Source: Nodosilinea sp.
Lineage (GTDB): Bacteria > Cyanobacteriota > Cyanobacteriia > Phormidesmidales > Phormidesmidaceae
Assembly: GCA_035466075.1 (NCBI GenBank)
Contig: DATIVG010000128.1
Location: 1,109 to 65,108 of the forward strand
DNA length: 64,000 nt
Direction of reading: 5' to 3'
In this document: one piece after another, positions 5,570 to 7,132 of the stretch
Layout of the letters: each line of letters opens with the position of its first letter
Numbering within the stretch: position 1 is the stretch's first letter
Notes under the pieces: model-generated
Seen by the model: the letters and a program-made list of their open reading frames with translations, nothing else
The model's database searches: none
What the model was told of the DNA's origin: nothing
Translations under genes and position numbers: made by a program

Positions 5570-6508
5570 CTACTTCAGGTGGTGACCAATCACCATTTGC
5601 AGCAGCGTGGGCTCACCGCCGGGCTGATGGTGCTTGTCGGCCCAGGCCCGAATCACCTCGTCAAGCTCCTGGAGCGCCGCCTCGCGCGCCGCCGCTGGAA
5701 TATCCAACTCCTCCAGCACCCGCATGGTGCCCGGTATGCGGCTGGCCCATTCCCGCATCATCCGAAAGTACTGGGCCGTGTCTTCGACCATGGAGTACAT
5801 GCGCTCCTGGTCATCCACCGGCGCGTAGGACGACCGGGCCAGCCCGTAGTAGGAGGCTCCCCAGGAGGCATCGATGCGGGCCACGGTACCCGAATAGATC
5901 AGCCGCCGCCGAATGTGCTCGGCCAGCGCCTCACTGAGGGGCACCCGGTGCGCCGCGGGCAGATCTTCCTGGGATTTGTCGTGGAGAATCTCAATCAGCT
6001 CCAAAAACTGGAACGAGTTAATAATGCGGGCGTCGGGGCAGGGCGCAGGCAGCTTGCTTTCTAGCAGCGCTTTTTCTTCGCCGGTCAGCGAGGTGCCCGA
6101 CACCCGCGACTGCCCCGGTTGCCAGGGGTAGCGCCGCAGCCACATGTAGGGAAACTGAATCAGATAGCGGGGTTCTTGGGAGCCCAGCATTTTTAGCAGC
6201 TTGCCCTCGGTCAGGGCCTGGCGCATTTCTTCGACAATGGCCTTTACCCGCTTGGGCTCAATGTGGTGCAAATGGCCCGTCATGCGCAGGTTTTCGCCCT
6301 GCTCCAGATAGGTCATATAGATGGCGCACTTGGCCGCCGTGGCCGCTGCATCTAAAAAGGCCCCGTGGCGGTGGCCGCCGGTGCGCATAGCGCTGAAGGC
6401 AATGTAGAGCAAAATCTGGTCGATGGCGCTGGGGCTGAGGCGCTGAATCAGGGCTTCATCTTCCACCGCTAGGGGGGACAGGGGCGTAGAAAAGAGAGGT
6501 TCAGCCAT
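5570..6508 (-). CDS. hetR: Heterocyst differentiation control protein HetR
   Basis: [63 protein letters not shown]...[14 protein letters not shown] is the HetR signature. The C-terminal hood domain has LEELD...QELDE...WADK. Confidence 0.98.
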
Positions 6509-6800
6509 GGAACTTGGGGAGACTCATAACGACGAGCGATCTCGCAACCCGTGCTGCTGAGGGGACGAAACCGCCAAAAACGACCAGAATTATGCCAATA
6601 CAGCTTAATCTAAAAGCTTAAAAAGAAAATGTATTAATAAGAATGGGTATCAAATACTGTTGCTTAGGTAAAGCTTTAGGATCGGCTCTGGGAACTGAGC
6701 CTTAAACCTAGGGGTGACAACCTGATTATGTTTAAGTGTGACTCAAAATCTGCCAAATAAACGGTCATCCCTGGGGGAGTTGCTCAGTGCTCCAGGCCCA

Positions 6801-6850
6801 GCCTGACCTGGCCTGGGTGCCGGGTCTCGGCAGCCCGGGCCAGGCTAGGC
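6801..6850. terminator. GC-rich hairpin overlapping the patX stop codon
   Basis: gcctg-a-cctggcctggg-tgccg-ggtct-cggca-g-cccgggccagg-ct-aggc. Could act as terminator or RNA stability element between patX and hetR. Confidence 0.55.
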
Positions 6851-7132
6851 ACCGTGGGGCTCGGTAATGCGACCGCTGCCGCGGTAGGCGACAGCCTCCG
6901 GCTGCCAGCTACTGCTGGGAGCCGGAGGTTGGGGGCTCACCCGCCCACTGCCGCGAAAGCTTTGCAGTTGCAGGGTGGCGGGCAGGCGGCTGAGGCGACC
7001 GCTGCCGCGGTCATCCTCGGTGCGAACGGTGGCCCGCAGCCCGGCCCCCGCGTAGGCGTTGAGCAGCAGGGAAATCCCTGGGGCAGCGGTGATCAGCAGG
7101 CCTAGGCTGGTGGCGCAGGCCAGACGAGTCAT
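6845..7132 (-). CDS. patX: PatX, an RGSGR-pentapeptide-containing HetR inhibitor precursor (three RGSGR copies)
   Basis: ORF 6845..7159, likely start ATG 7132. Hydrophobic N-terminus, then DRGSGR, FRGSGR and a C-terminal YRGSGR. Adjacent to and co-oriented with hetR. Confidence 0.88.
   Translation of the reverse strand: MTRLACATSLGLLITAAPGISLLLNAYAGAGLRATVRTEDDRGSGRLSRLPATLQLQSFRGSGRVSPQPPAPSSSWQPEAVAYRGSGRITEPHGA

Follow-up and report, generated by a model that had tools for sequence, protein, structure and literature searches.

A patX-type gene with three RGSGR cassettes upstream of hetR in a Nodosilinea-like cyanobacterium

Introduction

What do HetR and PatX do in filamentous cyanobacteria that make no heterocysts? 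The locus described here bears on this question. It lies in a stretch of 64,000 nucleotides (the window) on contig C128 of a Nodosilinea sp. genome (assembly GCA_035466075.1; 4.74 Mb, 61.9% G+C, 628 contigs). The host is a Nodosilinea-like non-heterocystous filament, and the locus consists of a patX-type gene with hetR downstream of it. Its particularity is the number of inhibitor motifs: three RGSGR cassettes follow one another in a single predicted precursor. The PatX-HetR pair and its occurrence in non-heterocystous filaments are established, and later papers cite Elhai and Khudyakov (2018) for them. We found that the patX gene is real and that its architecture is conserved and selected. 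We read the locus, with a probability of roughly 0.6, as a Nodosilinea-type PatX-HetR inhibitor-activator pair that would use a polyvalent precursor, HetR inhibition included; this reading draws on sequence comparison and on analogy with characterised systems.

Results

A patX gene with three cassettes upstream of hetR

The patX frame carries three in-frame RGSGR motifs, at 7009-6995 after an aspartate, at 6955-6941 after a phenylalanine and at 6883-6869 after a tyrosine (Table 1). A preliminary description of the locus had located the motifs and their prefixes correctly. It had counted the open reading frame (ORF) as 95 residues, which is its length from the internal ATG at 7132. The ORF and its hydrophobic N-terminus held up, but the conserved start, as judged from the alignment, is ATG 7159, which gives 104 residues. 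This start is preferred because the TCCTGA box lies at a fixed distance from it, because the N-terminal MHP is conserved and because the internal methionine is missing in several orthologues. As described earlier, hetR lies downstream on the same strand, at a distance of 336 nucleotides (nt) and not 337.

Table 1. Features of the patX-hetR locus, with positions in the window.
Feature	Position	Strand	Basis or remark
DIF1-like box TCCTGA, one mismatch to TCCGGA	7215..7220	-	61 nt upstream of ATG 7159
Conserved block, TGTAAC then TAGGACTAGAAGCGCTAACAAGG	7165..7197	-	begins 17 nt after the TCCTGA box
patX-type gene, three-cassette precursor	6845..7159	-	ORF; 104 residues plus stop
Signal-peptide-like N-terminus, residues 1-37	7049..7159	-	n-region to R12, hydrophobic core, A-Y-A before G38
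Cassette 1, D-RGSGR, context EDD-RGSGR-LSR	6995..7012	-	sequence, alignment, dN/dS
Cassette 2, F-RGSGR, context SF-RGSGR-V.P	6941..6958	-	sequence, alignment, dN/dS
Cassette 3, Y-RGSGR, context AY-RGSGR-IT	6869..6886	-	sequence, alignment, dN/dS
patX-hetR spacer, 336 nt	6509..6844	-	alignment of 21 spacers
hetR, 312 residues, full length	5570..6508	-	NCBIfam NF009718, Pfam and PDB matches

The N-terminus of PatX resembles a signal peptide. Kyte-Doolittle hydropathy reached maxima of about 2 over residues 13-32, and the core LAxAxSLGL was conserved among the 21 closest sequences. An AlphaFold2 model calculated with eight orthologues as input placed helices only at residues 9-25 and 29-37 and left residues 38-104 without secondary structure (predicted local confidence, pLDDT, around 54). 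Such a chain, unstructured beyond its N-terminal helices, would fit the look expected of a pro-peptide, and the sequence suggests that PatX may be exported. A lipoprotein reading of the N-terminus was rejected since its cysteine is not conserved, relatives having Y, W or S. Pfam gave no match for PatX of the window, nor for the single-motif PatX controls. Rfam, searched over positions 5000-8000, returned nothing relevant, only hairpin-driven microRNA look-alikes.

All three cassettes are under purifying selection

Is a gene needed to explain this frame, or could a chance ORF in GC-rich DNA look the same? The ORF is short, it belongs to no Pfam family, and every named one among the 41 other PatX homologue clusters is annotated as 'hypothetical protein'. 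RG[ST]GR occurs 136 times in the six-frame translation of the 4.74-Mb genome, and the patX frame with its three motifs is the only stop-to-stop frame in the whole genome that holds more than one, which excludes chance.

The comparison with relatives led to the same result. Conservation of PatX among the 21 closest sequences was confined to the MHP start, the LAxAxSLGL core and three cassette islands, (E/D)DD-RGSGR-(L/F)SRxPA, LSF-RGSGR-(V/I)xP and AY-RGSGR-I, with the three RGSGR motifs invariant in the 21 close orthologues. All three cassettes are under extreme purifying selection. The ratio of nonsynonymous to synonymous substitution rates (dN/dS), calculated per region from the same sequences by the Nei-Gojobori method, was 0.005 for the 15 motif codons, with a dS of 0.56, i.e. 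many silent changes. It rose to 0.08 for the two codons on each side of the motifs, to 0.37 for the N-terminal region and to 0.43 for the spacers and the tail. Conservation is thus not restricted to the C-terminal motif; such a restriction had been named in the preliminary description as an outcome against its proposal.

The codons of the motif serines told a similar story. In the window and the loci of 36 relatives, 103 of 103 were AGY and none TCN, whereas about half of the serine codons genome-wide are TCN; nine threonine variants in the motifs are one step from AGY. This is consistent with a single ancestral cassette as the origin of all of them and with selection that was never interrupted. 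Together, the region-specific dN/dS, the conserved start, the promoter box and the synteny in 45 genomes already refute a chance origin of patX.

The genome was also scanned for small ORFs that combine a hydrophobic N-terminus with a motif close to the C-terminus. Apart from patX, this gave a single ORF, which lies antisense at 5127-5315 on the downstream side of hetR. This second ORF was rejected as a product of chance: unlike patX, it is not conserved, being missing in 17 of 20 relatives, and the remaining three have a motif at another place and in another context. Neither PatS nor HetN was found in this genome.

Three cassettes are the norm in the Nodosilinea branch

The number of RGSGR copies across orthologues, which had been suggested as a check on the preliminary description, was counted by reading the 1.5 kb upstream of hetR in the best 80 loci. 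Twenty close relatives had the same patX, its cassettes arranged in the same succession and prefixed by D, F (or L) and Y. Two, three, four or five cassettes were found in 18 more distant relatives, Oscillatoriales-type genomes had one HRGSGR, and Nostocales had none adjacent to hetR. Identity to the window was 47-70% for PatX and 89-93% for HetR in the 21 closest sequences, the latter range covering Nodosilinea nodulosa PCC 7104 and about twenty Nodosilinea, Phormidesmidales and 'Leptolyngbya' genomes. A scan with the PatX alignment added eight further species with all three D/F/Y cassettes and hetR downstream. Both scans together gave 28 further Nodosilinea-like species genomes with a D/F/Y three-cassette patX upstream of hetR and another 16 with 2 to 5 cassettes, and adjacency and orientation of the two genes were kept in every relative with enough upstream DNA.

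In a HetR tree rooted with the genome's own HetR paralogue, all 38 multi-cassette rows fell on one side of a branch with a support of 91 in the Shimodaira-Hasegawa-like approximate likelihood ratio test (SH-aLRT); an inner node held 35 of the 38 (SH-aLRT 99). The sole row without a cassette inside this group comes from a contig that has no more than 86 nt of sequence before hetR. The ancestral and normal state there is therefore three cassettes, and the three-cassette PatX of the window is the clade norm in the Nodosilinea branch and no oddity. A PatX with several RGSGR motifs is thus common, which the preliminary description had named as an outcome that would speak against its proposal.

Within the multi-cassette group, the cassette was the unit of evolution. 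Two-cassette forms lost cassette 3 and kept the gene, tandem duplication added copies in the four- and five-cassette forms, and one relative showed a tandem repeat with a period of 48 nt, 3.3 copies and 91% matches. The lengths of the spacers between cassettes varied among relatives.

Could it be that only one cassette is active, and that the others are sites for protease recognition or docking, or competitive decoys by which release is timed? Canonical PatX needs one motif only, the two-cassette lineages could dispense with cassette 3, and the flanks of the three cassettes are distinct and conserved (EDD-..-LSR, SF-..-V.P and AY-..-IT). Selection on the five core residues is, however, equally absolute in all three cassettes, and independent tandem gains to 4 or 5 copies are easier to understand as a matter of product dosage than as an addition of recognition sites. 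We consider a single active cassette quite unlikely and prefer the polyvalent precursor, already proposed in the preliminary description, which fits with the conservation and selection of all three cassettes.

The most recent-looking amplification of cassettes was seen in Leptolyngbyaceae cyanobacterium M65_K2018_010, where PatX is cut by the contig start (L023:2-163, plus strand); its visible part consists of three perfect tandem copies of a 15-residue unit ending in AF-RGSGR.

In the patX of the window, motifs 1 and 3 are identical over 15 nt of DNA. The preliminary description had observed this correctly and had taken it for a sign of internal duplication; as evidence of a recent duplication it does not hold. 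All three cassettes have positional orthologues in at least 29 genomes, 19 of the 20 closest orthologues listed have AGA and not CGC at the end of motif 3, and Tandem Repeats Finder found no repeat in the window. Identical motif pairs are rare and scattered (4 of 120), and the similarity of motifs 1 and 3 stops at the 15 nt.

The promoter region of patX and the patX-hetR spacer

The DIF1 motif TCCGGA is a mark of patS and patX promoters in Anabaena. The canonical hexamer was missing within the 69 nt upstream of the patX start; TCCTGA was found there instead, at -59 to -64 from the start, both in the window and in each of the 44 loci of relatives that were examined. Downstream of it, the block at 7165..7197 was nearly invariant among the 21 closest loci, whereas the 17-nt spacer that precedes it was variable. 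The block likely comprises the -10 region, the transcription start and the leader. In Leptolyngbya BL0902, an identical TCCTGA with the same downstream block precedes patX-hetR and is labelled the 'predicted DIF1 promoter' (PMC11298460 Fig. S1). A generic sigma-70 scan gave nothing at the patX promoter region, which is what a promoter of the DIF1 type would lead one to expect.

A second conserved element, AAATCCGCAGATTTACG, was seen about 5-30 nt upstream of TCCTGA, at 7221-7250 on the minus strand of the window and at the same place in L003-L038. In relatives L030 and L031 it forms a perfect inverted repeat TCCGTAG..CTACGGA, in relative L005 it has the canonical TCCGGA inside it, and in the window it is degenerate and reads AAATCAGCGGATTTACG. 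This element may be a putative binding site for a regulator.

The patX-hetR spacer measured 182 to 659 nt in relatives. Alignment of 21 spacers revealed AT-rich blocks that are conserved within the 250 nt next to hetR, and a DIF1-like hexamer was not among them, so that hetR probably has a promoter of its own as well; the spacer would probably hold one or several of them.

HetR, its peptide pocket and PatP

The HetR of the window scored 509 bits with NCBIfam NF009718 (cut-off 489), matched the Pfam families Peptidase_S48 (PF03574) and HetR_C, the hood domain (PF18460), and hit PDB 3qod/4hri with E about 1e-148. In the structure of the hood domain with PatS6, the peptide is held by E253, E254, D256, D270, D278 and R223 (PMC4649674). 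All six residues are kept, at positions 266, 267, 269, 283, 291 and 236 (Anabaena position +13), which bears out the earlier observation of the acidic hood residues in EELD, ELDE and WADK. The complex uses the free N-terminus and the free C-terminus of PatS6 (PMC4649674). The idea of the preliminary description that different N-terminal residues diversify the function of the peptides is weakened by the same structure; the prefixes could still matter for proteolysis.

This pocket also bears on a further alternative, in which uncut PatX would be a multivalent ligand and hold several hood-domain sites of a HetR dimer or tetramer at once. PatX would offer three sites on one flexible chain, and HetN has an internal RGSGR. 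Against this stand the conserved signal-like N-terminus, which argues for export, the PatS6 site, where the N-terminus of the peptide is capped and extensions are restricted, and the spacer lengths, which are not conserved among relatives. We regard a multivalent ligand as very unlikely and return to a polyvalent precursor that would release its inhibitors by cleavage.

In Nostoc, PatX is exported by the Sec pathway and matured by the S13 peptidase PatP (Alr1666), and HRGTGR inhibits HetR (PMC12756182). A gene for an S13 peptidase was found on contig C182, cut by the contig end; its product shares 72% identity with the protein that Table S3 of that paper gives as the PatP homologue of Nodosilinea PCC 7104 (PMC12756182). 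By this identity, a PatP orthologue is present in the genome.

A second HetR-like gene was noticed on contig C311 (L002:1318-2247, plus strand). It encodes 309 residues, is 48% identical to the HetR of the window and keeps five of the six PatS-contact residues, with V at the equivalent of E254. No RGSGR ORF that could give it a PatX partner was found upstream; the gene that precedes it is a predicted lipoprotein-like gene. Two HetR copies are listed for Nodosilinea strains too (PMC12756182 Table S3).

Discussion

Relation to known systems

As relayed in PMC11298460 and PMC7761841, the PatX definition of Elhai and Khudyakov (2018) comprises at least one RG(S/T)GR, a hydrophobic N-terminus, a DIF1 TCCGGA within 69 nt of the start and, in non-Nostocales, a position upstream of hetR in the same orientation. 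The patX of the window has the RG(S/T)GR motifs, the hydrophobic N-terminus and the hetR linkage. It is small, like PatX (Asl2332) of Nostoc/Anabaena PCC 7120 and the single-motif Oscillatoriales-type orthologues, and shares with them the hydrophobic N-terminus and RG(S/T)GR (PMC7761841; PMC12756182), a candidate DIF1-type box within about 69 nt of the start, and the presence of the HetR pocket residues and of a PatP orthologue. With the single-motif patX of non-Nostocales it further shares the place upstream of hetR on the same strand. It differs from these proteins in having three cassettes instead of one, prefixes D, F and Y instead of H, and the box TCCTGA instead of TCCGGA.

The patX of Leptolyngbya BL0902 (GFS31_32390) resembles it in its promoter, TCCTGA, 17 nt, TGTAA..AGGACTAGA.GCGCTAA (PMC11298460). 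The N-terminus of its product is similar to those of relatives L032, L033 and L037, and hetR lies immediately downstream; the spacer of about 70 nt and the apparent co-transcription of both genes set it apart from the window with its 336 nt. Read from a noisy optical character recognition of the published sequence, it appears to have three RGSGR motifs (D-, ?- and Y-prefixed). The BL0902 homologue was reported as one that 'meets the definition of patX', was deleted and was profiled by RNA sequencing, and the number of its motifs went uncommented (PMC11298460). In the literature searched, which did not cover Elhai and Khudyakov (2018), we found no mention of two, three or multiple RGSGR motifs.

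With PatS and HetN of Anabaena PCC 7120, the PatX of the window has RGSGR, the active element of these proteins, in common, and EDD-RGSGR of cassette 1 resembles the PatS C-terminus, ..DE-RGSGR. Unlike it, PatS and HetN have no signal peptide, one motif each and occur in heterocyst formers only. Signal peptides followed by a repeated short peptide with variable spacers are familiar from yeast alpha-factor, multi-domain plant CLE proteins and neuropeptide polyproteins, where copy number varies by tandem duplication. The likeness to these eukaryotic multi-copy precursors is an analogy only, with no homology, and the predicted target of PatX is an intracellular transcription factor, not a surface receptor.

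How, then, could the three-cassette class be overlooked? The PatX hidden Markov model NF047413 has a cut-off of 30 bits. PatX of the window scored 8.2 bits (E 4.2), the PCC 7104 orthologue 10 bits, intermediate multi-cassette relatives 15-23 bits and single-motif controls 20-50 bits. A 2025 survey confined patX to Nostocales, Oscillatoriales, Gomontiellales and Spirulinales and listed Nodosilinea PCC 7104 and E11 with one PatP, two HetR and no PatX (PMC12756182, Table S3). The absence of patX in the Nodosilinea clade of this survey is probably a detection artefact. Both NF047413 and this phylogenomic survey, which relied on such models, miss the whole multi-cassette class. Nodosilineales are therefore scored as having 'hetR without patX', and the history inferred for the PatP-PatX-HetR module is distorted. 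The locus belongs, as an ordinary member, to a little-described subfamily within a known system.

A proposed mechanism and its weak points

If the locus is an inhibitor-activator pair with a polyvalent precursor, patX would be transcribed from the DIF1-like TCCTGA promoter. It would encode a pro-protein that is disordered, starts with an N-terminus resembling a Sec-type signal and carries three RGSGR cassettes, one with an acidic and two with an aromatic prefix. By analogy with Nostoc PatX, export would be followed by cleavage in the periplasm, through PatP and perhaps further peptidases. The X-RGSGR peptides set free in this way might move along the filament, be taken up by cells again and bind HetR in the acidic lateral cleft of its hood domain, which would take HetR off the DNA. 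Three cassettes could yield up to three inhibitor peptides per translated precursor, and their number, 2 to 5 in relatives, might then work as an evolvable dose knob. Export of PatX, cleavage at each cassette, uptake of the peptides, inhibition of HetR and the biological output are all steps that we infer.

The output would probably have to be sought outside nitrogen fixation. No nifH above the family cut-off was found in this genome, which is 94% complete, so that the circuit cannot serve heterocysts and probably not nitrogen fixation either. Nitrogenase appears to be missing from the host, which makes no heterocysts, and the circuit must pattern something else, in agreement with the preliminary description. 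Filament breakage (necridia) or dispersal, as proposed by others, would be examples of such other patterning.

Several points speak against this mechanism. PatX of the window stays far below the cut-off of NF047413, and the box in the patX promoter is TCCTGA and not the canonical TCCGGA. Because PatS6 needs a free N- and a free C-terminus, internal cassettes would need two cuts each. We know of no documented case of such double cuts at internal cassettes. Finally, RNA sequencing of the patX, hetR and double-deletion strains of BL0902 suggested that PatX is largely independent of HetR (PMC11298460).

The last point leads to the alternative that PatX is an exported signal whose main target is not HetR, for example a periplasmic or membrane receptor. 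Recognition of the RGSGR cassettes would then take place outside the cytoplasm, and the linkage to hetR would be a sign of co-regulation and not of direct inhibition. In BL0902, the double deletion resembled the patX and not the hetR deletion in those gene groups where their effects were opposed, which the authors took to mean that PatX is basically independent of HetR (PMC11298460). The signal-like N-terminus likewise points outside the cytosol. On the other hand, the six PatS6-holding residues of HetR are conserved in a lineage without PatS or HetN, the genome has no other PatX-like RGSGR ORF, adjacency and orientation of patX and hetR were kept in every relative examined, and RG(S/T)GR peptides bind HetR directly in Nostoc. 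A main target other than HetR seems unlikely to us, if worth keeping in mind, and HetR stays the favoured target of the cassettes.

A stronger version of the proposal would see in PatX a bacterial polyprotein morphogen precursor, in which each cassette is excised and active on HetR and the number of cassettes sets the ratio of inhibitor to activator, hence the spacing or frequency of the cell fate, whichever it may be, that HetR controls in non-heterocystous filaments. We put this forward tentatively, the odds being somewhat against it. As all cassettes are selected as strongly as the single motif of canonical PatX, the idea of a multi-peptide precursor becomes directly testable, be it in Leptolyngbya BL0902, which is genetically tractable, or in Anabaena PCC 7120. 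If true, the locus would provide a prokaryotic counterpart of multi-copy precursors of the alpha-factor or CLE type, and the co-occurrence of PatX, HetR and PatP would extend to Nodosilineales, contrary to the 2025 survey.

Neighbouring sequence

A perfect palindrome of 52 nt (26+26, no loop) at 5489-5540 starts 30 nt after the hetR stop, between hetR and the convergent ORF 4072-5475 (plus strand). It gave rise to the spurious Rfam microRNA matches; a bidirectional terminator or else a palindromic repeat element is the probable explanation for it. Before it, at 5560-5544, the direct repeat CCTGATCAG occurs twice, the second copy one base short. ORF 4072-5475 encodes 467 residues with a coiled coil in the middle and a long C-terminal half rich in Pro and Ala, and had no significant family match; the chance RGSGR ORF at 5127-5315 arises from its G+C-rich antisense strand. 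On the other side of patX, a class I/II aminotransferase at 7877-9054 (plus strand) is split into the overlapping ORFs 7877-8302 (Pfam profile positions 4-113) and 8299-9054 (profile positions 118-359), which points to a frameshift near 8300 and thus to a pseudogene or an assembly error.

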